This document shows, piece after piece, positions 7,801-47,802 of a stretch of 60,340 bases of DNA. Position numbers and translations under genes: made by a program. The stretch lies in the IMG/VR virus record IMGVR_UViG_3300021599_001640; one strand, 5' to 3'. The number at the start of each line of letters is the position of its first letter. Positions within the stretch are counted from its first letter, which is position 1. Below the pieces are notes generated by a model, which had not been told where the DNA came from, searched no databases, and worked only from the letters and a program-made list of their open reading frames with translations. This DNA comes from an uncultured virus (IMG/VR IMGVR_UViG_3300021599_001640). Taxonomy: Duplodnaviria; Heunggongvirae; Uroviricota; Caudoviricetes.

Positions 7801-10800
7801 AAATGCTATTATTAAACTCAAATCTTCCAAAATAGGTAGAGTCGAAGATTATGAGAGAATCAAAGATGGATTTGATTATCCAACAGATCCAACTTTAACT
7901 CCTTCTTTAAGTGTACCAACAGTTATTGGAATAAGAGATATTTTAACTATAGATTCTGTTGGTATTTTAACTGGAGGTAGAGGATATAATACTGCTCCGA
8001 CTTTATTTGTAAAGGATAACCCATCAATAAAATTAAAAGCTGATATAACTGGAGGTTCAGTAACAAAAGTCACTATAGTTAACAACTCAACTTCTTTGAG
8101 TTCACCACTACAAATTTCCTCAATTTATAATTCTAATGGATATGATATTGATAATGTTTCTGTTTCTGGAAATGATGTAACTTTAGAATTATTAGATACT
8201 AATTTTATTAATGTTGGTTTTGGGAATACACAAATTGATTTTCCTTTCGCAGTTGGAGATGAAATTTTTATTGAAGGTTGCCGACTGACTAATTCCACTT
8301 CATCCAAGGCAAACTTTAATTCTAAATCATATGGATATAGATTCTTTAAAATTACTTCCACTAGCGTAGAAAATAAAACCATTACTTATAGTATGTCTGG
8401 TATTTCTACGGGAGATTTTGGTACTTATGATGATACCATTACTTTGGGATATGTAGTTAATAAAAAATCTATGCCATCATTTGAGATGATCTTAAATGAT
8501 AATGTTAACTATCTGTCTGGAGAAAGAGTAACTTCTAGAGTCTTCTCTGGAAATGTAATGGAGGGTGGATGGGATAATGAACTAAACCAGTTGAGAATAA
8601 ATGATTCTGCTGGAAGTTTGATAGTTGGAGACAGAATATTTGGAGAAAATTCCAAAATAAATGGAGTAGTTGAATATTTTGATACTTTTAATCTAAACTC
8701 TACTTTAGGAGTTTCCAGAGATAAAGTTGGAGTGATAGACAATGCTGTTGGAATATTAAATGATTTCCAACAAAGAATTTCAGATAATTTCTATTATCAA
8801 AAGTTTTCTTATGCTATTAAGAGCGAAATACCTTATGATTCTTGGAGAGAATCTGTAAGATCCTTGGTGCATCCATCCGGATTTAAAGAATTTTCAGACT
8901 TAGAAATCGTTACCGAGGCTACTCAACCCGAAGTTCAAATTGGTATATCAAAATCTACAGATCTAAGACCAACAGTTTTAGAATCAGCATCATCATTCCT
9001 AGTTAATGTTGATAATAAAATTTCTATTGGTGAAAGAAGTAATTTTAATTTAGTTTATGAGGAAGATTTTCTTGATGATGGTTCTGTAGAGAAGGTATTC
9101 TTTAATGAAGGTATTGCTTTAAGAAATTATATTTTAAATAAAACAAATAAAGTTGTAACAATAGATGACATTAGTAGTCAATTTGATGGATCATCAATTC
9201 AAACTCTTGATGGAACTTATGCTGATGCTTCTGATCTATTAGATGGAAACAAAGCTTTTATTCAGCAAGAAGTAGTTGGATTTATCACTGCAACTTATCC
9301 TGGAATAGTTACCAGTGTTGGATGGAGTAAAACCAGTTTTACTGAAGAAATAGGAAATGTTGTAGATGCTATATCTCATGACATTAAGTACAATTCTAAC
9401 AATAAATCAGTAGGCCAGGGACTGGATTATTGGTCTGGTATTGGAACAAGTTATATTTCTGGCATCACCACTGAAAGATTATCTGCTTATAATTACATAA
9501 CAGATATATCAAAATACATTATTAATAATGTTGGAGTTAAAACTTCATATCAACTTGGAACTCCATTTGCAATAACAACTTCATCTTATAATAATGTTAC
9601 TGGAATTCAGACTATTAGATTAACTCCCGCAAATATAGTTAATTTAAATGCCTCTGTTGGTGATTACGTTGTAGTTAAAAATCTAGTTTTTTCTTGCAAC
9701 TCTGGTGGAGGAATAAGTACTGCAATATTCCCAAATCTTGGTGCAGGTTTGGATGGAAACGGCCCATTATCACCAAAAGGATTTGTATATGAAATTATTG
9801 GAATAGGTTTGAGTACGATAGAAATAAATCCAGGAATATCTACTATTGATCACACATATGTTGGTGGCGGCACGGTAGAAAAAGCATTTATATCTACCAG
9901 TCAGTACTATAATTTTTCAATTTTAGCAGATTCGGATTGTAGTGTATCTTATAGTTCTAGTTGTTGTGCTAATGTTCAATCTTCAATTGTGAATTATGTT
10001 GGAATTATTACTACAATAATAGGATTAGGAACAGCCTCTAGTCCAGAAATAACCTATCCATCCATAACAAGAGGTGGAGTTATAGTAGGTTTAACCACAT
10101 TTAAATTAACATCAAATGGAAATCCACTATTTAAGAGAGAGTTTAGTGGATCTGATTCAAATGTAATTAAGATTGACACTGATACTTTTATTTTCAATAA
10201 TCACAATTTCCAAAGTGGTCAAGAACTGATTTATACCTATTCTGGAACTCCAATTGGAATAGCAACTACTTCATATACCACTGAAATTAAAGATATTTTA
10301 ATGCAGGTTGGTAATTATAATGGAACATCAATTTATGAAAATGGGTATGGTGCTGCTATTACAACATCAATAACTGGAATTTCTACGGTATTAGTTCCAG
10401 CAGGTCCAACAACGCAATTATTTAATGATGTAGTAGGAACCAGTACTTCTGGTGGAATTAATGCTGTGTTCGATGTAGTAGTTTCGTATTCTGCAACAAC
10501 AGGACAACCATTATCAACATCAATTTCTCTGGTTTCAGGTGGAAAAGGATTTGCCGTTGGACAAACAGTATCTATAGCTGGTACTTATTTTAAAGGATCT
10601 AATCCAACAAATAATCTCTCATTTGTAGTAAGTTCAACTGGACCAACAGTAATTCAAGCGGCAGCAAATCAAACCTATTCAAATGTTCCCTCTTTGGATG
10701 TAAATGGAGCTACATTTAGTGTTTCTAGAAACAATGATGGAGAAATAAGTTCAATACAAGTTACCAATGGCGGATCTGGATATGCATCTACCTCCGTAAT

Positions 10801-28808: not shown

Positions 28809-31800
28809 ATGACTAAGCAGGTACAGCTAAGAAGAGGGACAAGTGCAGAACACGCATCATTTACTGGTGCTGTCGGAGAATTAACAATTGATACCACTCT
28901 TGATGTGGGTGTTGTTCATGATGGTAGTACTGTAGGTGGCCACCCTCTAGTTGGAACCAGAGCACCACAAACTATTGTTAATAAAACATCAATAGGAATC
29001 GGAACTACAGTTGCAAATTCTGAATTAGTCGTAGTTGGTAATGCTGATATTAGTGGTTCTGTAAACTCAGAATATTTAAATATAAATGAAAGATTTCTTT
29101 TAACAAAAACTGGAATAATATCCGCTGTTTCCAGTAATAGAATATTAGGAATTGCTACTTTAGGACTCAGAAAAGGCGATACTGTAACAATTGGAGCTGG
29201 TGTAACTTTAGGGACAGGAAGTACATCAATTATTACAGGATTTGGATCTGATATTATATTATTAGCTGATAATTTCGCAAGTCGTCTTGTTAATAAGACT
29301 GGTCGATTTGAATTCCCAAGTTCTTTTAGTATTATTGGAATAAACACTGCAAGTATTAGCGTAGGATATGGAATTACTGGGCAATACTTACGTTCGGATG
29401 AACAAGTATTTTCTGTAGGAATAGATCAAATCCAATTAACCTACGGGGCAACAAATCCTTTCTCTGGCGAAGTAGATATTCTTGGAAATACTACAGCAGG
29501 AAGTAATGTAATTGCTGGTGTAAGCGCTCTCGATACTGCTCAAGTTGAAATTGGAGCGTTTGTTGAAGATTTAGATAGTCCTTCTAATATTTCCGCAGGT
29601 ACTACTGTAGTCTCAAAGACTACAACTACAATAACTATATCCACAAATGCTACACAGACACTCGCTGGAACAACCATAGGACTTACTCGTGATTACAACT
29701 TTGTTCTTACACCTCCTCCTATCACTGATAATAATATTGTAATTGGTAATCCAAAAGCCGGAAGAGCAGATATTCCAAGAGTATACTCCGATTTTATTGA
29801 TACAAGCGATATCAATAGTACTGCGGCAATTGTCAATACACTATTCAGTGATACATCATATACAAATCAAGCTAATATTAATTCGGGTATTATTACTACA
29901 GCCTCAATTAATTCAGCAGTTGTTAGTAATTTAAATGCAACTACCGTATATTCAAATGATGTTAATATCAATACCGGTATTATTACAAGTGTTATAATTT
30001 TAGGTTCCAATATTACTAATTCCAATACTAATACTGCTAGGATTAATATTGGTATCATTACTTCTGCAACCATAACTGGTGCTGGAATTACTAACCTTAA
30101 TGTACAGACATCTACAACTAATCAGGCAAACATCAATATTGGTATCCTCACAACTGCTACAATTGGTGGAGCTACTGTTACTAATATAAACGCTACGAAT
30201 TCTTATACAAATACGGCTAATATTAATAGTGGTATCATTACTACTGCTACAATTACTGGTGCTACCGTAACTAATGCTAATATTAGCACGTCTTACACTA
30301 ATCAAGCTAATATTAACACAGGTATTATTACTAATGCTACCATAGGTAATGTTGGTATAACAACATCATATACAAATCAAGCTAATATTAACATCGGTAT
30401 TGTTACTACAGCTACGATTACTGGTGCCACTATTACCAACGCCAATATTACCACTTCCTACACAAATCAAGCCAATATTAATAGTGGAATTATTACTACA
30501 GCTACTATTTCTAGTGCGACTATTTCTAATGCTGGAATTTCCACCTCTTATACAAACATTGCTAATATTAATACTGGCATTATTACTAGTGCAACTATTA
30601 GTTCGGCAGATATTAATGTTGGAATAACCTCATTTTCATTTGTTGCAACATCTTACTCTAATGAAGCCAATATTAATACTGGAATTATAACATCAGCTAC
30701 GATTAGTCAAGCGGGAATTACAAGTTCTAATACTCAGTTTGCAACTATTGTTAATGCTGGAATCTCCACGTCTTATACTGATGTAGCCAATATTAATAGT
30801 GGAATTATTACTTCGGCTACTATTGCTGGCGCAACTATTACTAATGCCAATATTACCACATCATACACTAATGTAGCTAATATTAATCTTGGCGTTGTAA
30901 CTTCGTTAACTGGCCAGACTAGTATTATTGACAACTCCTTTACTACCACCTCTTATACAAACCAGGCCAATATTAATACTGGTATCATCACTGAAGCCAT
31001 AATAACTAATGCAGGAATCACTACATCATATACTAATGTAGCTAACATTAATAGTGGAATTATTACTTCAGCCACTATTGATTCCGCTACTATTACTAAT
31101 GCAGGAATCTCTACTTCTTATACAAATAGAGCTAATATCAATGTAGGTGTAATTACTGAGGCAGTAGTAACTAATGCAGATATTATAACCTCTTACACAA
31201 ATACAGCTAATATCAATACTGGTATTATCACTGCAGCAACAATAACTAATGGATCAGTTTCAAATCTATATGTCAATTCTGGCAACATTAATACAGGAAT
31301 TATTACTGGTGCTATAATCACTAATGCCAATATTACTACGTCCTATACTAATGTAGCTAACATTAATAGTGGTATTATTACTGCTGCAACTATTGAATAT
31401 GCAACTATTCTTAATGCAGGAATCACCACATCATACACTAATGTAGCTAACATTAATAGTGGAATTATCACTAATGCAACTATAACAAATGAAGTAACGA
31501 CTAATGCCAATATTACTACGTCCTATACTAATGTAGCTAATATTAATGTAGGATTTATAACTGCGGCTACAGTAACTAATGCAAATATCACTACTTCATA
31601 TACAAATCAAGCTAATATCAATAGTGGTATCATCACTGAAGCCATAATAACTAATGCAGGAATCACTACATCATATACTAATGTAGCTAACATTAATAGT
31701 GGTATTATTACTAATGCAACTATAACAAATGCAATAGTAACTAATGCGAATATTAGCACTTCATACACAAATCAAGCTAATATTAACGTAGGTTTAATTA

Positions 31801-34800
31801 CCGCCGCGACGATAACTAATGGATCTGTTTCAACACTATATGTAAACTCTGGCAATATTAACACGGGAATTATTACTGGTGCTATAATCACTAATGCAAA
31901 TATCACTACTTCATATACAAATCAAGCTAATATCAATAGTGGTATTTTAACATCTGCAGTAATAACTAATGCAGGCATCACAAGTTCATACACTAATGTA
32001 GCTAATATTAACGTAGGATTCATAACTGCGGCTACGGTTACTAATATAAATGCCACGAATTCTTATACTAATACTGCTAATATTAATAGTGGCATCATTA
32101 CTAATGCATCTATCGAATATGCAACAATTCAAAATGCAGGAATTTCAACATCTTATACAAATCAAGCCAATATTAATGTTGGTGTGATTACTGCGGCAAT
32201 AATAACTAATGCCAACATCACCACATCATATAGTAATGTGGCTAATATTAATACTGGAATTATTACTTCGGCTATAATAGATTCAGAAGTAGTAACAAAT
32301 TCTAGTATTTCTACATCTTATACAAATCGTGCTAATATTAATGTTGGTGTAATTACTGCGGCAACAATAACAAATGCGAATGTTACCACTTCATATACAA
32401 ATCAAGCTAATATTAATACTGGTATTGTAACAACTGCTCATATAAACACTGCATATATTGGATCAGCAAATATAAACATTGGGTTTGCAACTTATCTCGG
32501 TGTTACAACTAGTTTAACTGATAGAGCAAACATCAATGTTGGTGTAATTACCTCTGCTGGAATAACTACCGCAACTATTGATAGATTAAATGTAAACACT
32601 GGAGTTGCAACTTATTTGGATGTAAGAGTTTCTTATTCAGGAACCTCTTATGTTAATACAGGTATTATTACAAATGTAGGAATTACTTCTGGTTCTGCTA
32701 ACCTGCTTTATCTTAACGCCGGTATTGCAACTTATCTTGGAATTACTAGTAGTGTAACTAATGAAGCAAAAATCAATGCAGGTATTATAACAAATGCAAA
32801 TATAACAACTGCTACTGTCAATACTTTAAATGTAAATAGTGGAATTGCGACTTATCTTGGAATTACAACAGCGGTAGCGACTGCATTTAATATTAATACT
32901 GCATATATTAATTCTGGTATTATAACCAGTGCAAACGCAAGTTCACTAATAGGACAAAATGTTAATATTGTTAATGGTAACGTAGATAATTTAAATGCAA
33001 CTCTTGGATTCGTTACTCACTTAAGTGCAACAAACATCAATGTAAGTGGTATTTCTACACTTGGTAATGTTAGAATTGGTACTGGTAATACAAGTTTAGT
33101 TGTAACTGGTAATGCAAGAATTACTGGAATTTTAACAATTGGATCGTCTTCAGTAACAATAAATGGAAACAATAATAATGTAAGCGGTGTTAACAGTATT
33201 ACCGGTAACGTCGGTGTATTTACGAATGTTCAAGTTTCTGGAATTAATACATTTACTTCTCTTAGAAATAACGTTACATTTAAGACATCACAACTTGGAA
33301 TTGCAACCAATTATGATTTGGTTTTACCACCAACATTAGGTCAGAATGGACAATTACTTGGTTTAAATGCAGATGGAACTCTGGGATTTGCAACTGGTAC
33401 TGGATTGTATGAAAACAGATATTATGTTTCTTCAGTTAATGGTGATGACGCAAATGATGGTAAAACTCTTCCAGTTAAAACCATTAAGAGGGCATCACAA
33501 TTAGCATCTTTTGATAGCTTTATCATTCCTGGTCAAAGATACCTTGATGCTGGTAATTTAATTGAATCCAACAAAGAATTCATTAAAGAAGAAGTAGTAG
33601 CTTATCTTGAATTCAACTATGAGGATATTTCAACTCGTTTGATGGATTATGATCCAGTAATTTGTAAAAGAGATATTGGATATCTTGTAGATGCATTAGC
33701 TTATGATATTAGATTTGGTGGAAATTCCAAGTCTAGAGAAGCTGGATTAGCGTATTGGTCTGGTGCTACTTCATATGTTGCAGGTGAAGAAGAAGAGGCT
33801 ATTTTTGCATATGAGTATATTAAATTCCTTGGTCAATATATTATTAATAACCAGTCGCCACCAACCCTTTATCAGACTGCAGTATCTCAAACTTTTGATT
33901 TTACAATTATTGATGATCCAGAGAATACAAATACAAACTACTTCCATAGATCTAAAGATGCTAGAAATCTGATCATTGGCAACCGTCAAGAAATTATTGA
34001 TAAGTCTCTTGCATCTGTAGCTCTTGCTGCTACAACTGGATTCTACTTCCCAGGTGAACAAGAAACTAATGAAAGATCCAGATATTATGATTCTTATAAG
34101 TTAATCCAGATTAACAAACAAGAAATCGTAGATAAATCAATCGCATCTATTGCTATTGGATTCCCAACAGGATTCTATGTTCCAGGCCCTGGAGTCACAT
34201 CAACTACAGAAGATTCCAGATATTATGATGCTTATAGATTAATCCAAATTAATAAGAGTGAGATTGTTGCTACCGCTTTAACTGCAATATCCGTTCAATA
34301 CCCAACACTTTGGTCTTCTGGAGTTTCTTCAGCTAAGTGTCAGAGAGACTTGGGATACTTTGTTGATGCAGTCTCTACTGATGTCTTTACTGGTGGTAAT
34401 AATTATGCAAGAGCTTTCACAGGATTCTATTTTGTTGGTGTAGGAACTACCAGTTTAGCTGGAGAAGAACAACAAACAATTTACGGATTCCAACAAGCTG
34501 GAACTCAGATGAGAAGAGCTATTACAAATCTTCTCACAAATAAGAATTTGAATGTTTCTAGTGGACCAGAAACATATAACGGAGGTGGAGGTAACGTAGG
34601 TGTTTCCAGTACAACTGCATGTACAGATGTACAAAATACCATTGTTTCTCTCGTTGGAATCGTAACTGCAGCAATAGGAGTTGGAAATACTAGTGGACTC
34701 CCTGCAGTAAATTACGGTGATTTTGATCTCAACGTCATTGGATATGGAATGACAGAGGGTATCTGGAAGTGTGCTAGAGATACCGGATTCTTTATTGATG

Positions 34801-37800
34801 CCGTTTCTACTGATGTGTTTACAGGTGGTAATAATTATGCTCGTGCATTTACTGGATTCTATTTCAGTAATGTAGGTAATCTTCTTGCGGATGGTTTAGC
34901 CGGAGAAACCGCAGAATCTAATTATGTGTTTGAGAGTGCTAGAGATTACATGAAGAAAGCTGTTACCAATCAGCTTAATTCTAGAGATCTTACTATTACT
35001 GCAGATCCAGTAACTGGATTTAACACTGATCCTAATTCTTGTTCTAATGTAAGATCAACTATTGATACGTTGACTGGAATTGTTACAACAGCTGTTGGTT
35101 CTGGTAGTACTGCTGGAATTGGTGCAACAACAAATTATGGATATTTCTTGGTCAACTCTACCTATAATGTAAGTGATTTTGTAGGAATTGGAACCACTAA
35201 TGTTGTTGGTGGACGTAAATGTGCAAGAGATCTTGGATACATTGTCGATGCTGTTGCTCAAGATATCTCTTACGGAACTAACCAACATATTCTTTATGCA
35301 ACTAAAAAGTACTTCGATGGTGCTGGTGCAGCAAGAACAGATGGATTGTTGGGTGAAGAAGTAATCTCAGCTTACGCATTCCAGAGTTTAGGTACTTATG
35401 CAAAGAGAGCTGTAACAAATTGGTTAAATTACCAGGATTTAAGTATCCAAAATGATGTTAGTGTTGGATCCACAAACAAAGATGTAAATGTTTGTGCGAA
35501 CATAAGATCTAATATTGATAACCTTGTTGGAATTCTTACAACTGCAGTCATTAGTGGAAGTATTGTTGGAATTGCAACTACAAACTTAGGTTTAACCGAT
35601 TGTGCGGATGTCAGATCTGCATTAGTTAACTATGTTGGCATCATTACAACTATTGTTGGTCTTGGCACAACTGCAGCCCCAGCATTGGTTGCACCAGGAA
35701 CACAGTCACAACCTGTTTGTATTATCGTTGAGGCTGGAAACTATGTAGAAGATAACCCAATCATTCTTTATGATGATGTTGCAATCGTTGGCGATAACCT
35801 AAGAAATACTATAATTAGACCTGCAAATGCTGGTAAAGATTTATTCCGTGTAAGAAATGGAATCTATCTCACTGGTTTTGCTATGAAGGATGCGATTGAT
35901 CTCGCAGGTGTTCCCCAAAATACATTTGATTACGCTGTAGCTTTTGATGATCCTTCGGATAATCTAACTTCCAGAGCCGGTTATGCTACTAAATTAGACA
36001 AACCAACTATTACTAGATCTCCATATATTCAGAACTGTTCCATTCTATCATTCTTAGGTGGTAATGGAATGTTGGTTGATGGAAATAAAGTACTAACACC
36101 AAACGTACCTCTTATTTCTGAAGAGGTAGAAGTTGGTCCAGATGCTATTCAACCAGAACAAGGTAAGTCCATGGTTGCCGCAGCATTTACGATGGTTTCC
36201 TTCGGTGGTATCGGTTGGCGTGTTATTAACGATGGATATTCACAGGTTGTTTCTTGTTTCCAAATTTTCTGTAGATATGGATCCCTAGCGCAGTCTGGTG
36301 GATACCTATCCATTACAAACTCTGCAACTAACTTCGGTTTATATGCTTTAAGATCTACTGGATATAGTAGAAATTCGTTCATTTTTGATCGTGGTAGAGT
36401 TGCCGCGACTGGCACTTCTGGTGGATTACAAACACTCAAGGCAGTTGGATATGGTAGATCTGATGTTGAAAACTATATTCTCAGATTCTTCGATGGAAAT
36501 GGAGTTGATAGAACTTCACAGTTCAAACCAGCAGTAACAGTAAAAGAATTTAATGGAGCTACTGGAGTTGGTCTAACTGAGAATACTATTACAATTACAA
36601 CTCACGGATTTAATAATGCTGATCCAGTTATTTACAATGGAGACGAACAAGTAATTCCAAATAGAATTGTTGGTGGACTGGTTAACGACAACCAATACTA
36701 TGTTGTTTATATTGATGCTGATAATTTCAAGTTAGCTGAAGATGAGTCATTGAATACCATCGTTGACTTGACTTCACTAAGTACTGGTATTCATACTATT
36801 ACAAAGTCAACTCAAGACTTCTTCGTAAAAGAAATTATTGATTCACATAATTCATATCAAAAACTAACCCTTGCTGGAGTGGGTTCTACAGCATCGTTTG
36901 TTTCTGGTAGATTAATCAGTCAAACTGTAGTTGGAGGAACTGCAACTGGATTTGCGGTAACGTATAACAACACTACTAGAGAACTTATTGTCGCATTAGA
37001 ACTTTCTTCTGGAGTTAGAAGGAATTTCTCAGTTACTAATGGAACAACAGTATTAAACATTAATGATCACAGTCCATCTCCGATTTCTATCGGGGTAAGT
37101 GCTGTTGTCGGATTAACTACTTATTGGACTGTTGAATTTAAGACAGATTCTACAATAGCTGGAACACTCGTTCAGAATATTGGAACTTTACCTGAAGTGT
37201 ATAAACTACACTTCCACAGACCATCTATTGTAAACTCTTCATCACACACTTGGGAATTCTCTGGTTCTGGTATAGATTATAATGCTCTCCCACAAAATGG
37301 AGGTCAAACCGATCCAAGATCTGAACAAGTTTCTGAACTTGGTGGTAGAGTTTATTCATCCGGTACCAATGAACTTGGAGACTTTAAGATTGGTGATTCG
37401 ATTGTTGCCTATAACAGAACTGGTAACATTATCTTCAATAATACTGTTACTATTGGTACTCTTGATTCTATTAGATTATCGCTGTCTGGTGGTAACGTAA
37501 TTGAAGAGTTCTCTACGGATACGGATCTTGGTGATAATGAAATTGGTGGACCTAAGCACTCTAGAGTTCCTACACAACTTTCAACTAGATCATTCTTGAA
37601 TAATAGACTTGGAGATTTTATTGATAAATCAGTTTCTACAAACGCTATTCCTAACGCTGTTGTTCAACTCAATTCAATCGGTCAAATTAATGCTGATCTA
37701 ATTCCACCAAAAACTGTCAATTACTATAAGTCTTCAGTAGATGGTGGAAGAACTCAGTTAGTTAACTATATTCCTGCTACTAGCTTAGTATCCGGAGATA

Positions 37801-40800
37801 CTGTAGTTGAGCCAACAGATTCATTCGTTCTAATTACTGATACTGTAGGTCAATATTTGGTTCTAAACAATTCAACTGTCTACAATTTCCTGAATGGGGA
37901 TGAAGTAGTTAGTGTAACTTCTGGTGGTGGTGCAATTGGTGTTGTAACTGCTCCACCAAGAATTGGAGTTGGTTTAGGTACAACTACATTATCTTTCCCA
38001 AATGTAGGTTATGGAACTACTGGTCTTGTCAGAGGCGTACCTTTAACATTGAATTCTTTAGTTGGTGGTTCTGGATACAATAATCCAGGAATCTATACGG
38101 GTGTTCGTCTTGATACTTCTACTGGTATTGGAACCGGAATTACTGCTACGATTACAGTTGGTGTTAGTGGAACAGTTACTAATGTTGCAATTAATACTGG
38201 TGGATACAAATTTGCTGTAGGTGACGTATTAACTCTTAATAATCCCACTCCAATTGGTGGAAGAACTGGTGGATCTAACTTTACTGTTAACATAGCTACT
38301 GTAGAAACAAGGCTCTATCTTGCCCTTTCTAATGGACAGAAATTCCCAGGAAGTTCTGCACTTTCAGACTTCGTTTCTGATAGAAATGCAGTTGCTATTT
38401 CAACTAATATTGGAATAGGATATACTGTAACCTTCACCCCTACGGATATTAGCGTTGGCGGTAGTGTTGACTTTGCAAATGATAGAATTGTTGTTGGATC
38501 TGGTCATAGTTTTGTTGATGGAGATCCAGTAATTTACCGTAGTGGTGGTGGAACTCCAATAGGTCCACTACTGGACACTACAACATATTATATTAAGACT
38601 GTAGGTTTAACATCTGTTCAACTTTATTCAACCTATGCACTTGTAACTATTAAAGATCTGACAAGTAGTGGTACTTTAACTCATTCATTGAGTCGTGTTG
38701 GGGTCAATACTTTAACTGATCAGATAACATTTAAAAACCATGGATTGAGTCAGGGTGAAGCAGTAAAAGTCACTGGTAATACTCCAACCGGAATTACTAC
38801 TGGTAGTTTCTACTTTGCTGGATCAGTAACTACAAACTCATTTACATTCCATGAAACTAGAGCTGCGGCTTTAGCTTCTATTAATGGTCTACTTCTAAAC
38901 ACTGTAAGTTTGGCAGGAGGCACCATTAATAGTGCTGTAGGAATTATGACTCTTACAGAGCAAAATGTTGAGTATTCTAGAACTGTTAACACTTCATCTT
39001 CAGATACCAATAATTGGTCACTACTTTCTGTAGGAAGTTTAGATGCGTCCAACATTATTACTGGTACATTATCACCATCTAGACTTGGAAGTGGAACTGC
39101 TAATGACCAGACATTCTTGAGAGGTGATTCTTCATATCAGAAAGTAATTACTTCAGTTGGAATTGGAACAACTCAACCAATTGGTGTAACTGCTACTAGT
39201 TCCGAACTAGCCCCAGGTGGAGTTGGAGTTAATACTTACTATGGAAATATCAACATAACTCTGAATAGAGCTCAAACTTCTTCAGATGAATATTCAACTC
39301 TTGGTGTATCTAGATTCAAGTCTTCTACATTTACAGTTGGTACAGATGGTGCTATAAGTATTAAGAATTCTGTGACTGGAGATGTGGATGCTGCCACTCT
39401 AGGTGGTCAGAACAGTGCATATTATCTTGATATTCTCAATAGTACTGGAACTCTACCAGTAACAAGAGGTGGAACTAATCTTACTGCAGCTCCTTCACTT
39501 GGATTTACTTTACTTGGAAATGGAAGTTCTTATACTTTAACTGGAAGTCCAGAATTTGCAGGAGTAGTGGGTGCTGGATTCACTGTTCTAATTGATAAAG
39601 ATATTTCTTTTGCAAATAGTTCAAATTGGACGGGCAATAAAGCTGCGAAGATTCAATACTTCAACGGTTCTCTTTATAATCAGTATACAACGAATTGGAT
39701 TCTTAGAAATTCTGGAGGAACAGATGTTGTAACAGTTAGTGTTGCTGGAACAGGTACATTTACTGGAGCAATACAAGCAACAAGATTCACATCAACTCAG
39801 GCTACAGGAACTGCACCATTCACAGTTTCTTCTACTACATTAGTAACTAATTTGAATGCAGATTTACTTGATGGGAAGAACACTGGAACATCTGGAAATA
39901 CAATTCCACTTTTAGACGGATCAAATACTTGGTCAGGAACACAATTATTCTCAAGTTCATTTGAAGCTGAAGCTAAAACCAAGGACGATATTACTACAAG
40001 AACTAAGAGTGGTTTCTGGCAGACTGACACTGCTACAACTGCAGAAGGTTGGCCACAAACAACAAATACTTGGTATCACCTTCTCAGTTCTACACATAGT
40101 AATACAGCGAATTACTATGCAATGCAGTTTGCTGGAAGTTTTTATAATAGTAATGATATTTACTATCGTTCAACAAATGGTAGTGGAACAACAGCTTGGA
40201 ACAAGTTATGGCATCAAGGTAATGATGGTTCTGGATCTGGACTAGATGCAGATTTACTTGATGGACTCAACTCTTCAACAACTAATACGGTAAGTACTAT
40301 TGTTTCTAGAGATGCTTGGGGTGGATTTAGTGCAGGTATTGTTACGGCTACTTCTTTCGTTGGACCTCTAACCGGTAATGTAACTGGCAATTTAACTGGT
40401 AATGTTACAGGCAACCTAACAGGTAATATCAGTAATACTGTTACAGGAACTGCTACCACAGAACTAGTTCGTGGTAACATGGCTGATAATGATTTCTTCC
40501 GCATCCTTATTGGTGGAACAACTTCTAACGCTGGTTATGTTGAAATTGCAACTGCAGACGATGGAACAGAACCAATTTATGTAAGACAGTACAGTGGTAC
40601 TTTTACATCCTTACAGAGAACTGCAACTCTTCTTGATGGTTCCGGTAATACTACGTTCCCAGGTATTGTTACCGCTACAAGATTTATTTCCAATGTATCA
40701 ACAGGTACAGCTCCATTTACTGTCACTTCTACCACACAGGTAACTAATCTTAATGCATCACTATTGGAAGGTTACTCTACTGATAGTGCAAATACTGCAA

Positions 40801-43541
40801 GTAGAATTGTACTTCGTAACGTTCTTGGTGGATTTGCTGCAGGAATTGTAACTGCAACTTCATTTGTAGGTCCATTAACTGGTAATGTTACTGGCAATGT
40901 AACAGGTAATGTGAGTGGTACAGCAGGAGGTCTCTCAGGAACTCCGAGTATCACCATCAATGCTCTAACTGCTACTTCAGCTGTAGTAGGCACAAACGTA
41001 GTTCTTAATTCCACTGGTATCAATGTAACTGGTATAATAACTGCAACTTCTTTTGTAGGTCCATTGACAGGAAATGTTACTGGAAATGCAACAGGCTTAA
41101 GTGGAACACCAAGTATCACTATCAATGCTTTAACTGCAACTTCAGGTGTAGTGGGTACAAATGTAGTTCTCAATTCTACAGGTATTAACGTAACTGGCGT
41201 AGTAACTGCAACTTCATTCGTAGGACCACTAACTGGCAACGTCACTGGAAATGCAACAGGCTTAAGTGGAACACCAAGTATCACTGTTAATACAATAACA
41301 GCTACATCGGGAATTATTACTTCGATTGAACTTGGAAATCTAACTGACACTACAATTACTAGAGCTTCTGCAGGTAGAATTGCCGTTGAAGGCGTTAATG
41401 TTGTAACTGTATCTTCAACTGATACATTAACTAACAAAACAATCGCTGCAGGATCTAATACTATTTCTGGTCTGACTAATGCAAACTTAAGTGGTTCTGC
41501 TGGAATTACAAATGCAAATCTAGCAAACTCAACCATTTCTGGTGTTTCACTTGGATCAAATTTAAATACATTAACCTTGAATACATCTGGAACTGGTCTT
41601 TCCGGTTCTACAACTTATAATGGTTCTGGTGCTGTTACATTCACAGTTACATCTAATGCAACTTCTGCAAATACTGCAGGTGCGATAGTTTCTCGTGATG
41701 CTTCTGGTAACTTTAGCGCTGGTACAATTAGTGCAACAACATTTAGTGGCGGCGCTGGAACATTCAGTAACAATGTTACCATCAATGATGGTGGTGCTTC
41801 TTCTAATACCACTGCATTTGGAACTTATAAGAGATTAGTATTTGATAATTCCTTTAATGATGCTGCTCGTGGTCCAAATAAAATTACCCTTTATAATGAT
41901 GGCAGTACTTGGGCTGGTGGATTTGGAATTCATAGTGATACGGTTTCTTATTATTCTGGAGGAACTCATAGATGGTATAAAGTAAATAGCCAAACATCAT
42001 TCTCAGAAATATTAACTCTAACTGCTGCAGGAGCTTTAACTGCCGCTTCAACAATTTCTGCTACAAGATTAATTTCAACAGTTGCAACAGGAACTGCTCC
42101 ATTTACAGTTTCTTCAACTACAGAGGTAACTAACTTAAATGCTGCTTTACTCAATGGATTTAGTTCTGCAACCACAAATACAGGAAATACTATTGTAAGA
42201 CGTGATGCTTCTGGTAATATTAATGGAAATACTATTACGGGTACAACAATTGTTGGTGGTACTGGAACAGCGATTGGTGGTGGTGGACTAGTTGTTAACG
42301 GAACAACTGGTGATAATGACTCTCAATTGATCATCAAGAAACCTTCCCAGTCATCATTTGGTGTTCTTACTTGGGATGGAATAGTCTTCTTAAGTTCTAA
42401 TATTTACTATACTGATGGATCTTGGGTACATAGTGCTCCAGCTGGTAACAATAATAACCAATTGTTCTTACTCCAACCTGGAAGTGGCGCAAGATGGTAT
42501 GCATCTAATAATGCAACTGGTTCTTGGAACGTTGCAAGTAATCTAGAATTGTGGAATGACTCTGGTACATGGCAGAGACCTCTTGCGAATACATTAACTA
42601 TGAATACATCTGGAACTGGTATTTCTGGTTCCACCACTTATAATAACTCTGGAGCAGCTACATTTACTGTTACATCAAACGCAACTGCAGCAAATACAGC
42701 AAGCACCATTGTAGCTCGTGATGCTTTTGGTAACTTTAACGCAGGAATAATTACCGCAACATTCTCTGGAACATTTAACGGTAGTATCAATGGTAATGCT
42801 ACTGGATTAACTGGAACCCCAAGTGTTACGGTTAACGCATTAACTGCTACTTCTGCTACTATTGGTACTAATGTAATTGTTAATTCCACTGGCATTAGAG
42901 TTACTGGAGTAACAACTTCAACTGGAGGATTTGTTGGTGCATTGACTGGTAATGTAAGTGGTAATGTGACTGGAAACGTTACTGGTAATGTAACTGGTAA
43001 TTTAACCAATACTGTAACTGGAACAAATACCACTGAACTTGTTCGTGGTAACATGGCGGACAACGACCAGTTCCGCATTTTAATCGGAGGCACTGCTTCT
43101 AACGCTGGTTATGTTGAAATTGCAACTGCAGATGATGGAACCGAACCAATTTACGTTAGACAATATACTGGCGTATTTTCAACTCTAACCAGAACTGCAA
43201 CTCTCCTTGATGGTTCCGGTAATACTACTTTCCCAGGCACAGTAACTGCACAATCTGATATTAAATTAAAGACAAACATCAATACAATTGAAAAGGCTCT
43301 AGAAAAAGTATTGAAGTTGCGTGGAGTTGAATATGATCGTATTGATATGAATGGCGAACATCAAATTGGTGTTGTCGCTCAAGAAGTTGAAGAAGTAATC
43401 CCTGAATTAGTATTTGAAACTGAAGATGGAACTAAGTCTGTTGCTTATGGAAACATGGTAGCAGTTCTAATCGAGGCAATTAAAGAACAACAATCACAAA
43501 TAGAAGACCTGAAAAATCAAATTAATGAACTTAAAAAATAA
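28809..43541 (+). CDS. Giant tail fibre/tailspike (4910 aa): Mtd_N-like N-terminus, pentapeptide-periodic stalk, beta-helix with inserted helical domains, mosaic distal part, C-terminal S74 chaperone
   Basis: N-terminal QVQLRRGT..EH..FTGA.GE..IDT....VVHDG...GG.PL. C-terminal SD.KLK.NI..I..ALEKVLKLRGVEY...IGVVAQEVEEV.PELV plus a coiled coil (peptidase S74 autocleavage chaperone; Ser codon 43254). Confidence 0.92.
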   Translation: MTKQVQLRRGTSAEHASFTGAVGELTIDTTLDVGVVHDGSTVGGHPLVGTRAPQTIVNKTSIGIGTTVANSELVVVGNADISGSVNSEYLNINERFLLTKTGIISAVSSNRILGIATLGLRKGDTVTIGAGVTLGTGSTSIITGFGSDIILLADNFASRLVNKTGRFEFPSSFSIIGINTASISVGYGITGQYLRSDEQVFSVGIDQIQLTYGATNPFSGEVDILGNTTAGSNVIAGVSALDTAQVEIGAFVEDLDSPSNISAGTTVVSKTTTTITISTNATQTLAGTTIGLTRDYNFVLTPPPITDNNIVIGNPKAGRADIPRVYSDFIDTSDINSTAAIVNTLFSDTSYTNQANINSGIITTASINSAVVSNLNATTVYSNDVNINTGIITSVIILGSNITNSNTNTARINIGIITSATITGAGITNLNVQTSTTNQANINIGILTTATIGGATVTNINATNSYTNTANINSGIITTATITGATVTNANISTSYTNQANINTGIITNATIGNVGITTSYTNQANINIGIVTTATITGATITNANITTSYTNQANINSGIITTATISSATISNAGISTSYTNIANINTGIITSATISSADINVGITSFSFVATSYSNEANINTGIITSATISQAGITSSNTQFATIVNAGISTSYTDVANINSGIITSATIAGATITNANITTSYTNVANINLGVVTSLTGQTSIIDNSFTTTSYTNQANINTGIITEAIITNAGITTSYTNVANINSGIITSATIDSATITNAGISTSYTNRANINVGVITEAVVTNADIITSYTNTANINTGIITAATITNGSVSNLYVNSGNINTGIITGAIITNANITTSYTNVANINSGIITAATIEYATILNAGITTSYTNVANINSGIITNATITNEVTTNANITTSYTNVANINVGFITAATVTNANITTSYTNQANINSGIITEAIITNAGITTSYTNVANINSGIITNATITNAIVTNANISTSYTNQANINVGLITAATITNGSVSTLYVNSGNINTGIITGAIITNANITTSYTNQANINSGILTSAVITNAGITSSYTNVANINVGFITAATVTNINATNSYTNTANINSGIITNASIEYATIQNAGISTSYTNQANINVGVITAAIITNANITTSYSNVANINTGIITSAIIDSEVVTNSSISTSYTNRANINVGVITAATITNANVTTSYTNQANINTGIVTTAHINTAYIGSANINIGFATYLGVTTSLTDRANINVGVITSAGITTATIDRLNVNTGVATYLDVRVSYSGTSYVNTGIITNVGITSGSANLLYLNAGIATYLGITSSVTNEAKINAGIITNANITTATVNTLNVNSGIATYLGITTAVATAFNINTAYINSGIITSANASSLIGQNVNIVNGNVDNLNATLGFVTHLSATNINVSGISTLGNVRIGTGNTSLVVTGNARITGILTIGSSSVTINGNNNNVSGVNSITGNVGVFTNVQVSGINTFTSLRNNVTFKTSQLGIATNYDLVLPPTLGQNGQLLGLNADGTLGFATGTGLYENRYYVSSVNGDDANDGKTLPVKTIKRASQLASFDSFIIPGQRYLDAGNLIESNKEFIKEEVVAYLEFNYEDISTRLMDYDPVICKRDIGYLVDALAYDIRFGGNSKSREAGLAYWSGATSYVAGEEEEAIFAYEYIKFLGQYIINNQSPPTLYQTAVSQTFDFTIIDDPENTNTNYFHRSKDARNLIIGNRQEIIDKSLASVALAATTGFYFPGEQETNERSRYYDSYKLIQINKQEIVDKSIASIAIGFPTGFYVPGPGVTSTTEDSRYYDAYRLIQINKSEIVATALTAISVQYPTLWSSGVSSAKCQRDLGYFVDAVSTDVFTGGNNYARAFTGFYFVGVGTTSLAGEEQQTIYGFQQAGTQMRRAITNLLTNKNLNVSSGPETYNGGGGNVGVSSTTACTDVQNTIVSLVGIVTAAIGVGNTSGLPAVNYGDFDLNVIGYGMTEGIWKCARDTGFFIDAVSTDVFTGGNNYARAFTGFYFSNVGNLLADGLAGETAESNYVFESARDYMKKAVTNQLNSRDLTITADPVTGFNTDPNSCSNVRSTIDTLTGIVTTAVGSGSTAGIGATTNYGYFLVNSTYNVSDFVGIGTTNVVGGRKCARDLGYIVDAVAQDISYGTNQHILYATKKYFDGAGAARTDGLLGEEVISAYAFQSLGTYAKRAVTNWLNYQDLSIQNDVSVGSTNKDVNVCANIRSNIDNLVGILTTAVISGSIVGIATTNLGLTDCADVRSALVNYVGIITTIVGLGTTAAPALVAPGTQSQPVCIIVEAGNYVEDNPIILYDDVAIVGDNLRNTIIRPANAGKDLFRVRNGIYLTGFAMKDAIDLAGVPQNTFDYAVAFDDPSDNLTSRAGYATKLDKPTITRSPYIQNCSILSFLGGNGMLVDGNKVLTPNVPLISEEVEVGPDAIQPEQGKSMVAAAFTMVSFGGIGWRVINDGYSQVVSCFQIFCRYGSLAQSGGYLSITNSATNFGLYALRSTGYSRNSFIFDRGRVAATGTSGGLQTLKAVGYGRSDVENYILRFFDGNGVDRTSQFKPAVTVKEFNGATGVGLTENTITITTHGFNNADPVIYNGDEQVIPNRIVGGLVNDNQYYVVYIDADNFKLAEDESLNTIVDLTSLSTGIHTITKSTQDFFVKEIIDSHNSYQKLTLAGVGSTASFVSGRLISQTVVGGTATGFAVTYNNTTRELIVALELSSGVRRNFSVTNGTTVLNINDHSPSPISIGVSAVVGLTTYWTVEFKTDSTIAGTLVQNIGTLPEVYKLHFHRPSIVNSSSHTWEFSGSGIDYNALPQNGGQTDPRSEQVSELGGRVYSSGTNELGDFKIGDSIVAYNRTGNIIFNNTVTIGTLDSIRLSLSGGNVIEEFSTDTDLGDNEIGGPKHSRVPTQLSTRSFLNNRLGDFIDKSVSTNAIPNAVVQLNSIGQINADLIPPKTVNYYKSSVDGGRTQLVNYIPATSLVSGDTVVEPTDSFVLITDTVGQYLVLNNSTVYNFLNGDEVVSVTSGGGAIGVVTAPPRIGVGLGTTTLSFPNVGYGTTGLVRGVPLTLNSLVGGSGYNNPGIYTGVRLDTSTGIGTGITATITVGVSGTVTNVAINTGGYKFAVGDVLTLNNPTPIGGRTGGSNFTVNIATVETRLYLALSNGQKFPGSSALSDFVSDRNAVAISTNIGIGYTVTFTPTDISVGGSVDFANDRIVVGSGHSFVDGDPVIYRSGGGTPIGPLLDTTTYYIKTVGLTSVQLYSTYALVTIKDLTSSGTLTHSLSRVGVNTLTDQITFKNHGLSQGEAVKVTGNTPTGITTGSFYFAGSVTTNSFTFHETRAAALASINGLLLNTVSLAGGTINSAVGIMTLTEQNVEYSRTVNTSSSDTNNWSLLSVGSLDASNIITGTLSPSRLGSGTANDQTFLRGDSSYQKVITSVGIGTTQPIGVTATSSELAPGGVGVNTYYGNINITLNRAQTSSDEYSTLGVSRFKSSTFTVGTDGAISIKNSVTGDVDAATLGGQNSAYYLDILNSTGTLPVTRGGTNLTAAPSLGFTLLGNGSSYTLTGSPEFAGVVGAGFTVLIDKDISFANSSNWTGNKAAKIQYFNGSLYNQYTTNWILRNSGGTDVVTVSVAGTGTFTGAIQATRFTSTQATGTAPFTVSSTTLVTNLNADLLDGKNTGTSGNTIPLLDGSNTWSGTQLFSSSFEAEAKTKDDITTRTKSGFWQTDTATTAEGWPQTTNTWYHLLSSTHSNTANYYAMQFAGSFYNSNDIYYRSTNGSGTTAWNKLWHQGNDGSGSGLDADLLDGLNSSTTNTVSTIVSRDAWGGFSAGIVTATSFVGPLTGNVTGNLTGNVTGNLTGNISNTVTGTATTELVRGNMADNDFFRILIGGTTSNAGYVEIATADDGTEPIYVRQYSGTFTSLQRTATLLDGSGNTTFPGIVTATRFISNVSTGTAPFTVTSTTQVTNLNASLLEGYSTDSANTASRIVLRNVLGGFAAGIVTATSFVGPLTGNVTGNVTGNVSGTAGGLSGTPSITINALTATSAVVGTNVVLNSTGINVTGIITATSFVGPLTGNVTGNATGLSGTPSITINALTATSGVVGTNVVLNSTGINVTGVVTATSFVGPLTGNVTGNATGLSGTPSITVNTITATSGIITSIELGNLTDTTITRASAGRIAVEGVNVVTVSSTDTLTNKTIAAGSNTISGLTNANLSGSAGITNANLANSTISGVSLGSNLNTLTLNTSGTGLSGSTTYNGSGAVTFTVTSNATSANTAGAIVSRDASGNFSAGTISATTFSGGAGTFSNNVTINDGGASSNTTAFGTYKRLVFDNSFNDAARGPNKITLYNDGSTWAGGFGIHSDTVSYYSGGTHRWYKVNSQTSFSEILTLTAAGALTAASTISATRLISTVATGTAPFTVSSTTEVTNLNAALLNGFSSATTNTGNTIVRRDASGNINGNTITGTTIVGGTGTAIGGGGLVVNGTTGDNDSQLIIKKPSQSSFGVLTWDGIVFLSSNIYYTDGSWVHSAPAGNNNNQLFLLQPGSGARWYASNNATGSWNVASNLELWNDSGTWQRPLANTLTMNTSGTGISGSTTYNNSGAATFTVTSNATAANTASTIVARDAFGNFNAGIITATFSGTFNGSINGNATGLTGTPSVTVNALTATSATIGTNVIVNSTGIRVTGVTTSTGGFVGALTGNVSGNVTGNVTGNVTGNLTNTVTGTNTTELVRGNMADNDQFRILIGGTASNAGYVEIATADDGTEPIYVRQYTGVFSTLTRTATLLDGSGNTTFPGTVTAQSDIKLKTNINTIEKALEKVLKLRGVEYDRIDMNGEHQIGVVAQEVEEVIPELVFETEDGTKSVAYGNMVAVLIEAIKEQQSQIEDLKNQINELKK
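29800..33060 (+). repeat. Intragenic tandem array of pentapeptide units (e.g. ANINS-GIITT-ATITG-ATVTN-ANIST-SYTNQ)
   Basis: Read directly from the translation. Exact DNA repeats: 30980-31057 = 31625-31702 and 31321-31360 = 31501-31540. Boundaries approximate. Confidence 0.93.
40840..41310 (+). repeat. About three tandem copies of a 55-aa (165-nt) fibre repeat
   Basis: Unit TATSFVGPLTGNVTGNATGLSGTPSITINALTATS.VVGTNVVLNSTGINVTG..; ACTGCAACTTC at 41040 and 41205. Confidence 0.9.
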
Positions 43542-47378: not shown

Positions 47379-47801
47379 ATGAAGACATTCCGAAATTTTT
47401 GTGCCGAGGCTTATTCTATTAGTGAAATGGCAATGAATCCAAATAGTCGTTTCACTACAAGTGCTCAAAGAAATGCCTATGCTTCAAATCAGATTGGATC
47501 AAAGCAATTTTCTGACAGAGGTGGATATGCAGCCCTTAAAGCAGGTGGTGGACAAGCAGCACTAAAAAAAGGAAGTAGTGTGAGTGATGTTCTTTATGCG
47601 GGACAAAAGGCAAAAGCAGCAAAGGCACAACAAGATTTTTCTAACAAAATAAACAGACCTTCTCAACAGCAGTCTACACCAGTCAAAAAACCAATGGATG
47701 ATTTTGCTGCTGGTGGTGGTGCAGCAAAGATGAAAGCAACTGGTATGACAAAAGATCAAGTGATTTCACTTGGAAAGAAAAACTTATCTAATCAAAAGTA
47801 A
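47379..47801 (+). CDS. Putative capsid internal protein with T4 IP-like capsid-targeting sequence
   Basis: N-terminus MKTFRNFCAE|A resembles the T4 IPII/IPIII targeting peptide MKTYQEFIAE. Basic and A/G/K-rich, with two AGGG..(A/K) repeats; late promoter upstream. Confidence 0.65.
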   Translation: MKTFRNFCAEAYSISEMAMNPNSRFTTSAQRNAYASNQIGSKQFSDRGGYAALKAGGGQAALKKGSSVSDVLYAGQKAKAAKAQQDFSNKINRPSQQQSTPVKKPMDDFAAGGGAAKMKATGMTKDQVISLGKKNLSNQK

Positions 47802-47802
47802 T

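Follow-up and report, generated by a model that had tools for sequence, protein, structure and literature searches.

Repeated insertion of a domain into its own kind has been described for Si3 of the cyanobacterial RNA polymerase β′ subunit, in which eight SBHM domains reach 150 Å through six levels (PMC10895346, PMC13114784), a depth that a survey of 2.7 million domains offers as its showcase (PMC13114784). As these sources describe it, Si3 is an elongated arm made from one domain type by recursive insertion, with continuous terminal domains and discontinuous middle ones. The nest described here likewise repeats one domain type by recursive insertion and may form a comparable arm; however, Si3 is all-β and sits in a conserved enzyme, whereas our nest has the all-α fold of a pigment protein, is 1 to 10 levels deep, branches and has been moved between proteins. 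Recursive self-insertion has a precedent in Si3.

The domains of the nest share a globin fold and a CxRD motif at the 84 site with CpcB, CpeB and cryptophyte β chains (PF00502) and with ApcE, and share with phycobiliprotein β subunits a Cys before helix H (155 site) and an Asp at the β-39 position. In ApcE, helices B and E are separated by an insertion. CXRD globins are reported to attach bilins without lyases, and BBAG holoproteins to be photoinert and weakly fluorescent (PMC10151467). BBAG-1 and BBAG-3 of that report are, like our domains, distant CXRD globins outside phycobilisomes, and their lyase-free bilin binding provides a precedent for ligation in fibre domains, although they are stand-alone proteins of bacterial HO/FDBR gene clusters and ours lie inside a virion protein. 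The available part of that paper describes no nesting, and what it says of phages concerns PcyX, PcyA, PebS and HO rather than virion globins.

The window, by which we mean the whole 60,340-nucleotide stretch analysed (IMG/VR IMGVR_UViG_3300021599_001640), contains the nest at nucleotides 33417-35830, corresponding to aa 1537-2341 of a single large ORF. This ORF has an Mtd_N domain at aa 5-41 and a Peptidase_S74 chaperone domain at aa 4816-4868 (family scan), is flanked by baseplate genes on one side and gp13/gp14 on the other, the identical gene position being occupied in S-SCSM2R, and is placed in the tail-fibre class by Mtd_N, S74, the tail gene block and tail PHROGs. Its product is a putative virion component, its relatives being recorded as tail fibres or as structural proteins of the virion. 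The giant virion proteins of T4-like cyanophages (PHROG 5342, 4527, 701), among them S-PM2 p091, the S-RSM4 short tail fibre and the orthologues in DSL-LC03 and S-SCSM2R, have families, gene position and modules in common with the window ORF, the orthologues having two inner units where the window has three; the records examined for these giant proteins read tail fibre, structural or hypothetical only, with globin content and nesting unannotated. HO and FDBR families were not found among the 23 window ORFs scanned. The features are as follows:

28809..43541, + strand: tail-fibre-type virion protein ORF of 4910 aa, T4-like cyanomyovirus
33417..33512, + strand: DUF1565-type β-helix cap, half 1 (YYVSS...KTIKRA, aa 1537-1568)
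33534..33908, + strand: outer domain D1, A1 being helices A/B and B1 helices E-G; CxRD Cys at aa 1619
33942..34043, + strand: A2, the helices that open D2, with Ile in profile column 14; partner, the last nested B/C
34074..34175, + strand: A3, N-terminal helices of D3; partner most likely the middle B/C, a swap with A4 being possible
34212..34694, + strand: D4 (A4-B4-C4), innermost and contiguous; Cys at aa 1844 (CxRD) and aa 1938
34749..35114, + strand: B3-C3, C-terminal part of D3; Cys at aa 1988 and 2078
35202..35567, + strand: B2-C2, the C-terminal portion that completes D2, with Ala in column 54; Cys at aa 2138 and 2229
35583..35675, + strand: C1, supplying helix H to the outer domain D1; Cys at aa 2265
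35709..35843, + strand: cap half 2 (IIVEAG...NTIIRP) and start of a putative β-helix
9206..10037, + strand: fifth copy, D1-type, in a gp7-like baseplate protein (ORF 1829-14740)

An earlier note on this DNA had read the motif order as A1 B1 A2 A3 A4 B4 C4 B3 C3 B2 C2 C1 rather than as a tandem array, and profile scans reproduced this order as A B A A A B C B C B C C, with A segments at aa 1576, 1712, 1756 and 1802, CxRD cysteines at aa 1619, 1844, 1988 and 2138, and C-motif cysteines at aa 1938, 2078, 2229 and 2265. The copies are homologous, with identities of 29-53% (A-A), 27-53% (B-B) and 29-61% (C-C), and linker lengths are constant (A-A 43, inner A-B 27, outer A-B 32). Such an order is not due to chance, since balanced A..B..C parsing succeeds for 233 of 300 complete non-redundant relatives and for 0.3% of shuffled balanced strings, the 67 non-parsing strings including divergent tandem proteins with A and C pieces overlooked by the profiles, and strings with single missed motifs. 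The same note had also held that the cap halves flanking the nest are normally adjacent, which proved correct in 28 distinct relatives with a gap of <50 aa (among the examples listed, 9-20 aa, as for the S-PM2 p091 N-terminal cap), and the comparison of homologues by insert number that it proposed showed the gap growing with unit count, from uninterrupted caps to 362, ~541, ~734 and ~1126 aa for nests in which the outer unit encloses 1, 2, 3 and 5 inner ones. In another two relatives, 7-8 divergent units lie between the cap halves. The uninterrupted cap scores above the cut-off for DUF1565 (E 2e-5), which we take to be a β-helix family, while the downstream cap half of the window gave a weak, below-cut-off pectate-lyase-like match (E 0.012). 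For the region downstream of the nest, a PDB sequence search returned no relative and the ESM Atlas only unnamed viral clusters.

Structural alignment of the model identified the A+B+C domain as a phycobiliprotein β-like globin (Z 17.3-15.4, rmsd ~2.1 Å, ~140 residues), the best match having Z 17.3 and rmsd 2.4 Å over 139 aligned residues. All 50 of the fold matches listed were phycobiliproteins or derived proteins, ApcE among the structural matches at Z 13-14, and likewise all 41 sequence matches of the domain profile to the PDB at E<=1 were phycobiliproteins or derivatives. D4 scored 20.3 bits against PF00502, under the Pfam cut-off of 22.2, and many relatives have precomputed PF00502 matches. 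Using D4 as query, the ESM Atlas gave no usable match (best 0.81), and Foldseek with the whole model found nothing in the PDB at E<=0.001 and, in a viral library, nothing but relatives. The dimerising X/Y helices are absent, as sequence and compact structural alignments begin at chain residue ~28-39, and the linker from the previous A precedes the domain in place of the X/Y extension; the domain is therefore a homologue of phycobiliproteins and not an antenna subunit. Unlike phycobiliproteins, which are free α-β antenna subunits, the window domains also have a short B-E loop and invariant D56/N62, fall below the Pfam cut-off, and are discontinuous repeats inside a 4910-aa virion protein.

The parse offered earlier, A1-B1-[A2-[A3-[A4-B4-C4]-B3-C3]-B2-C2]-C1, was evaluated with residue couplings trained on 747 contiguous domains from 119 proteins without nests. 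With these, the nested arrangement outscored the serial one in 193 of the 204 proteins left after filtering and in 251 of 263 unfiltered ones, which backs the recursive insertion that the note had proposed; without the strongest column pair nesting was still preferred in 246 of the unfiltered set, compared with 108-168 in eight shuffled controls. In the window's family the 14/54 residue pair was concordant 74:0 when paired as nested and 18:56 when paired serially, and by architecture 29 of 35 favoured nesting, with three serial and three tied. The competing serial arrangement, with the i-th A joined to the i-th BC to give a closed ring or ladder, is preferred by segment-identity matrices in 84 of 88 pure nests. 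We ascribe this preference to the terminal pieces and, because these were outliers in both runs, rank the segment-identity test below the residue-level one, yet it counts as a result against nesting. Under none of four scorings did serial pairing rank first among the six pairings compared in any of 28 relatives; it would require rings of 2 to 10 units each closed by an identical short linker, and appears to us extremely improbable, whereas that the domains are nested is very likely.

At the outer levels the distant, mirror-ordered completion seen in Si3 was found, joining A1/B1 to C1 and, by couplings that agreed in 28 of 28 relatives, A2 to the last B, so that these parts of the parse are supported. 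For the outer domain, the model range 43-758 aligns as a single globin (ApcE, globins) and sequence class likewise assigns A1/B1 and C1 to one domain, while the B1-C1 coupling score flips sign with the number of pairs used. The inner pair is less clear-cut: with all couplings the nested order was best in 21 of 28 relatives and a partial swap, which leaves the nesting of D1 and D2 intact but gives A3 the first B/C as partner and A4 the middle one, in seven, and with the top 50 couplings the counts were 13 and 15. The swap would also fit the 88% identity of B3 and B4 across the first 32 aa counted from Cys, as well as the AlphaFold result. Prediction from a single sequence (aa 1531-2500) gave pLDDT 31, and with an alignment pLDDT 57.5 and pTM 0.54, with the cap and β-helix flanks below pLDDT 50, i.e. 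unfolded there. The pairing check that the note had suggested was borne out for C1 with A1/B1, but the best domain within the nest spanned 269-567 (A4 to middle C) and not 269-433. As 57 of 66 rows of the input alignment had collapsed to a two-unit frame without A3 and the middle B, this range reflects either a swapped inner pair or a copy of the collapsed alignment, which itself predicts it, and the model cannot decide the inner pairing; a three-chain competition fold of A2 against A4 for the last B/C gave 0.30 against a mark of 0.32 and is given no weight. Against the swap, the spacing from A4 to the first B is that of ordinary contiguous domains, the sole hydrophobic A14 and the sole lost D51 of the ten-deep family sit on mirror partners, and, when 5-unit relatives are compared with 3-unit ones, the most conserved A (90%) and the most conserved B (86%) again form a mirror pair. 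We therefore consider the strict nested order of the inner two domains likely and the swap improbable.

Each of the four window domains has CxRD and a second Cys aligning with β-155, and the earlier suggestion that the arm could hold chromophores gains weight from these residues together with the modelled phycobiliprotein fold. Across 1174 domains, the C, R and D are conserved at 97%, 95% and 99% and Y72 at 100%. Profile alignments (probability 6-33%) equate the CxRD Cys with CpcB C82, the second Cys with C153 in four of four, and D8 with D39, and D8 tracks the second Cys, being present in 400 of 423 domains with it and 75 of 689 without. As the β-84 site (CxRD) and the β-155-like site (Cys, helix-A Asp) are both kept, the fibre is most likely bilin-loaded, and from these sequence features we regard bilin binding by the fibre domains as probable. 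A nested arm without pigment is possible though rather unlikely; in it the globin fold would provide rigid spacing or bind a surface, and CxRD, Asp and Tyr would be retained because folding needs them or because they allow disulfides to form from one domain or chain to its neighbour. Such an arm would suit the invariant N16, D56 and N62, which look structural and have no phycobiliprotein counterpart, and the gp7 copy (9206..10037), where CxRD is gone and reads FTEE. It fits poorly with the CxRD Cys (Cys42) being retained at 97% in domains where the only other motif Cys stands at 1.5%, a pattern that led us to reject the view that Cys42 is kept solely for a disulfide within the domain, and with the joint decay of the motif, R falling to 43% and D to 63% in the 30 domains without C; the match of second Cys and Asp to the β-155 site also speaks against it. 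Furthermore, bilin sites 84 and 155 of β subunits lie far apart, too far for a disulfide within one domain.

The family is confined to phages of bilin-making hosts, a further point against a pigment-free arm. All 342 matched phage records are named Synechococcus, Prochlorococcus or cyanophage except one ('Marine'), and 185,579 species genomes gave five matches, all to phage-type proteins on MAG contigs; a cellular origin of these close relatives was rejected on finding gp23 on one contig, an adjoining portal gene in one and virion-protein PHROGs in the rest scanned. Among 17 cultured genomes, ten had both cpeT and the domain, three the domain only, none cpeT only and four neither (Fisher p 0.015), these genomes being related, with few independent contrasts, and the loose first look liable to miss divergent copies. 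cpeT lies within ~2 kb upstream of the domain-bearing fibre gene in S-PM2, S-RSM4, Syn1 and S-CAM1 and distant from the domain genes in P-HM2, S-SCSM2R and G001, and it was not detected in the domain-bearing genomes B23, DSL-LC03 and G002, which accords with a pigment-free arm. So does a full-text literature search (main texts, few subscription papers), which found no report of pigment on these virions and no description of phycobiliprotein-like domains in cyanophage virion proteins.

Related phages differ in nest depth from 1 to 10, with branching, and have domains shifted between fibre and baseplate proteins, with up to 36 matched stretches per protein; P0173 has gained a contiguous AABCBC cassette relative to P0218. 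Such numbers would suit bulk absorption better than a single switch, and a pigmented arm might protect the free virion from light or act as its antioxidant screen, or the bilin might only rigidify the fold, with light-dependent adsorption residing in the host surface. The photoinert, weakly fluorescent BBAG holoproteins (PMC10151467) are in keeping with this, as is P-SSM2, which lacks the domain and adsorbs in the dark, though less, and so is somewhat light-dependent. However, the domains are located in fibres and baseplate wedge proteins and not in the capsid around the DNA, and P-HM2, which does not adsorb in the dark, has the domain, whose presence goes with strict light dependence across the three phages compared (P-HM2 and S-PM2 versus P-SSM2), a very small sample. 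Photoprotection or stiffening is in our view doubtful.

On balance we favour a length-adjustable, bilin-bearing virion arm of nested globins as the best reading of these sequences. The insert would comprise four phycobiliprotein-derived globin domains without X/Y helices, with D1 in the cap loop of the β-helix, D2 in the G-H loop of D1, and D3 and D4 in the B-E loops of D2 and D3, respectively, in line with the two insertion sites found (G-H in the outer domain, B-E in the inner ones); in the gp7 copy the G-H loop holds an unrelated insert of ~130 aa. The chain would run outward via the A helices and back via the B-C parts, each domain consisting of an outgoing and a returning strand, and because of this out-and-back stitching a unit of ~190 aa could be added with all linkers unchanged. 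New units may arise inside the nest, either when a contiguous ABC cassette is duplicated and inserted or when sibling phages recombine by an offset double crossover. Host bilins would be loaded before assembly, possibly by self-ligation or a host S-type lyase at the first site and by the phage T-type lyase CpeT at the second, and the adsorption apparatus would thereby bear a pigmented arm whose length can be adjusted. This arm might project sideways from a putative receptor-binding β-helix, as the note had proposed. The likeliest use for it, ahead of photoprotection or pigment as a pure stabiliser, may be attachment tied to light, which we propose only tentatively.

These observations suggest that self-insertion is a route to a protein rod of variable length and branching, from one to at least ten levels, exceeding the six presented in the survey (PMC13114784). 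With four copies of a pigment fold bearing attachment residues, whether the particle carries pigment is now testable, and the nested-globin family is a concrete candidate in the cultured phages S-PM2, P-HM2 and Syn9, its named cysteines making it amenable to test; a monomeric phycobiliprotein fold without X/Y helices is also a possible fluorescent-protein scaffold. More speculatively, many T4-like cyanophages may carry a fibre/baseplate antenna, covalently pigmented with bilins of the host, that is the true CpeT substrate and gates attachment by light, a suggestion from sequence comparison that we hold to be unlikely as it stands. If true, it would account for the retention of cpeT, even in Prochlorococcus phages, and for the adsorption of S-PM2 and P-HM2, which requires light but not host photosynthesis.

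The window carries the structural block of a T4-like cyanomyovirus, with the genes for gp6, a 4303-aa gp7-like protein and gp8 followed by those for the neck, terminase, sheath, tube, portal and capsid. The features discussed are:

1829-14740: ORF of the gp7-like protein
9206-10037: fifth copy of the domain, within that ORF, whose G-H loop holds an unrelated insert of ~130 aa
28809-43541: ORF of 4910 aa, with Mtd_N at its start, a Peptidase_S74 chaperone domain at its end, and matches to tail-fibre PHROGs
29796-33248: repeat region rich in Thr, Asn and Ile, ~1150 aa long and preceding the cap; it has 29 [AS]NINxG motifs, mostly spaced by 25 or 30 aa, and matches no Pfam family
33417-35830: nested feature, aa 1537-2341 of ORF 28809-43541
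44418-45848: gp14 neck protein of 476 aa, with an added module common to phrog_701/5342 virion proteins
47770-49725: ORF of 652 aa that separates the small from the large terminase gene, carries DUF5661 and several unknown PHROGs, and lies in an AT-skewed stretch

The closest cultured relatives of ORF 28809-43541 are in Synechococcus phages DSL-LC03 and S-SCSM2R (57-61% identity), the latter at the same gene position, while the record nearest to the window (G001; 90% of sampled words in common) has the same nest and a cpeT gene, encoding a T-type bilin lyase. The repeat region varies greatly in length between close relatives (the G001 ORF is 4113 aa) and is probably a shaft of adjustable length.

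Profile scans returned the motif order A B A A A B C B C B C C, exactly as the earlier note had read it, and the nested-motif feature is real. Among relatives, the architecture A-B-[An(BC)n]-C occurs with n = 1, 2, 3 or 5; also found are free nests An(BC)n, where n ranges from 2 to 6, tandem nests, and the branched arrangement A10(BC)7A2(BC)5. The motifs parse as a balanced string in 233 of 300 complete non-redundant proteins, compared with 0.3% of shuffles (108/113 in a first set); among the 67 that fail are divergent tandem forms, whose A and C pieces escape the profiles, and strings in which one motif was overlooked. The branched nest (loci L061-L076, proteins P0128-P0157) comprises 12 domains, and in ~10 relatives its third returning unit holds another insert, of ~415 aa; in loci L017 and L024 an extra ~141 aa separates B from C in the middle domain (second returning unit), again in the G-H loop.

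The two halves of the cap flanking the nest are contiguous in 28 relatives, and elsewhere their separation grows by ~190 aa per extra unit. The cap is a putative beta-helix: an uninterrupted cap in a relative matches DUF1565 (E 2e-5), a pectate-lyase-like beta-helix family, but the window's downstream half reaches a family of this kind at E 0.012 only and was left unfolded in the AlphaFold2 (AF2) model.

A profile of 34 innermost A-B-C units gave 41 PDB matches at E<=1 (best E 0.001), each of them a phycobiliprotein or a protein derived from one. The AF2 model superposed on beta-phycoerythrin and beta-phycocyanin chains with Z of 15-17 and an rmsd of ~2.1 A over 133-153 residues, and in a wide structure search phycobiliproteins and ApcE took ranks 1-8, above photoglobin and sensor-globin folds. 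In globin helix nomenclature, motif A spans A/B, motif B spans E-G and motif C is H. However, unlike phycobiliproteins the phage domain has no X/Y helices, and it falls below the Pfam cut-off of that family, and for these reasons we do not count it as a member, although we infer that it may work like a beta-phycobiliprotein. The family comprises 1276 clusters at 50% identity, with >30 matched stretches in some proteins. All 342 cultured-phage records matched have cyanophage-type names, one being merely 'Marine', and the five cellular-genome matches are proteins of phage type on MAG contigs. In one MAG labelled Saprospiraceae (L179:3915-10226), a 2104-aa fibre with the domain adjoins a non-T4 type portal gene (phrog_145), and may belong to a cyanophage of another family or be a rare non-cyanophage case. 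Six giant proteins of 4200-6400 aa (P0213, P0216, P0217, P0219, P0244 and P0245) contain 20-37 copies of a divergent, mostly tandem domain in which CxRD is retained and the second Cys is absent.

Balanced motif counts alone cannot separate nested pairing from serial pairing, in which the i-th A joins the i-th BC, because both fit. A first test spoke against nesting: in 84 of the 88 pure nests, identity matrices of A against BC pieces correlate better when paired serially, a preference that stems from two outliers, the last A and the last BC. Residue couplings were then learnt on proteins that lack nests (119 proteins with 747 contiguous domains), where the strongest A-B couplings (17-51, 14-54 and 21-47) correspond to an antiparallel helix contact. 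Among the 204 proteins that passed an alignment-quality filter, these top three pairs favoured nested over serial pairing in 157, with 6 against and 41 tied, and all couplings together favoured it in 193. Unfiltered, the count was 251/263, or 246 when columns 14 and 54 were dropped, compared with 108-168 proteins in eight controls with shuffled A parts. As the scored proteins are kin, architectures were also counted on the 14/54 pair, using residue classes defined after the couplings had been seen, and 29 of 35 favoured nesting, with three favouring serial order and three tied. Concordance in the window's family was 74:0 under nested and 18:56 under serial pairing. In a ten-deep family, the sole hydrophobic A14, in the fifth A, faces the Ala54 in the sixth BC, and the seventh BC, which has lost Asp51, faces the fourth A; both are the partners required by the stack parse. 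Taken together, we regard nesting of the domains as highly likely.

Among six possible pairings in 28 three-unit relatives, A2 joined the last B in all 28, whereas A3/A4 were nested in 21 and swapped in seven with all couplings, but 13 and 15, respectively, with the top 50. The best inner domain of the AF2 model spans residues 269-567, from A4 to the middle C, a range that fits the collapsed alignment behind the model and an inner-pair swap alike. The ordinary length of the A4-to-B4 linker partially supports strict nesting, and we consider this order likely. For the outer domain, AF2 residues 43-758 align as a single globin, and B1-type segments, where the domain is contiguous or carries another insert, are directly followed by a C whose closest match is the final C1 (68-77%); the coupling test of B1 with C1 was unstable. 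Of the four-fold nest originally proposed, the A2-last B and A1/B1-C1 pairings are supported.

When five- and three-unit proteins are compared, the two best-conserved middle segments, an A (90%) and a B (86%), are partners in the mirror order, with the additional units inside them. Relative to P0218, P0173 has gained a contiguous AABCBC cassette within an open nest, and P0211 has one A and one BC more than P0222, both central. These differences would be explained if self-contained cassettes were inserted, or if sibling phages underwent offset double crossover. The whole outer-domain (D1) cassette is mobile, lying between unrelated flanks (11-22% identity) in many relatives, and gp7-size proteins with domain copies occur in P-HM2, S-SCSM2R and the window. 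Recursive self-insertion is already known from Si3 of cyanobacterial RNA polymerase, as described in PMC10895346 and PMC13114784.

In phycobiliproteins the beta-84 and beta-155 sites lie far apart, and Asp39 serves the beta-155 chromophore. A low-probability profile alignment to CpcB of an Acaryochloris plasmid equates Cys42 of the phage domain with Cys82, the C-motif Cys with Cys153 and Asp8 with Asp39. Across 1174 contiguous domains, Cys42 is conserved in 97%, Arg44 in 95%, Asp45 in 99% and Tyr72 in 100%; Cys42 is equally conserved in domains without the second Cys, and where it is lost Arg and Asp decay too. Asp8 is found in 400 of 423 domains with the second Cys and 75 of 689 without, largely a two-clade contrast, and all four window domains have both cysteines and Asp8. 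PMC2327270 assigns T-type lyases to Cys-155 and S-type to Cys-84, and PMC10151467 describes distant CXRD globins that bind bilin without a lyase, yet are photoinert. It seems somewhat likely that the phage domains bind bilin. The fifth copy retains a Cys-Cys ahead of helix H, but its CxRD is lost, and it offers a natural pigment-less control. A second giant protein of P-HM2 (L189; 80000-92000) has CxDD rather than CxRD domains, while the P-HM2 gp7 copies retain CxRD.

Table. Domain and cpeT in 17 cultured genomes
Domain and cpeT (10/17): S-PM2, S-RSM4, P-HM2, S-SCSM2R, P-SSM4, Syn9, Syn33, S-SM1, Syn1, S-CAM1
Domain without cpeT (3/17): B23, DSL-LC03, P-SSM7 (two sub-threshold candidates in P-SSM7)
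cpeT without domain: 0/17
Neither (4/17): P-SSM2, S-SM2, S-SSM7, S-CRM01

Domain and cpeT were associated (Fisher p 0.015 for 17 genomes, seven chosen because domain-bearing; 0.024 for ten picked blind to domain content), with kinship leaving few independent contrasts behind these values. Three of four uncultured domain-bearing records also have cpeT. The gene lies just upstream of a domain-bearing fibre gene in four genera, which synteny alone may explain, as P-HM2 cpeT has a similar genome position and no domain-bearing neighbour. PMC3037559 terms the role of phage cpeT unresolved. Light-dependent adsorption is attributed in PMC6628666 to host receptors and/or tail fibres, and described as independent of host photosynthesis in S-PM2; in the dark P-HM2 does not adsorb, while P-SSM2 does at a reduced level. 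The domain is present in S-PM2 and P-HM2 and absent in P-SSM2, a pattern that, with three phages, is a lead rather than a test.

Full-text searches of openly accessible main texts, among them PMC2984593, PMC10452541, PMC10665884 and PMC7824862, revealed no description of cyanophage virion proteins with phycobiliprotein-like domains. What the present analysis adds is the coupling test and its controls, the limit that this test reaches at the inner pair, and the cross-tabulation of domain and cpeT. A light-gated virion antenna loaded by CpeT appears unlikely, and as the best combined reading we narrowly favour a nested, bilin-bearing arm on the cyanophage virion.
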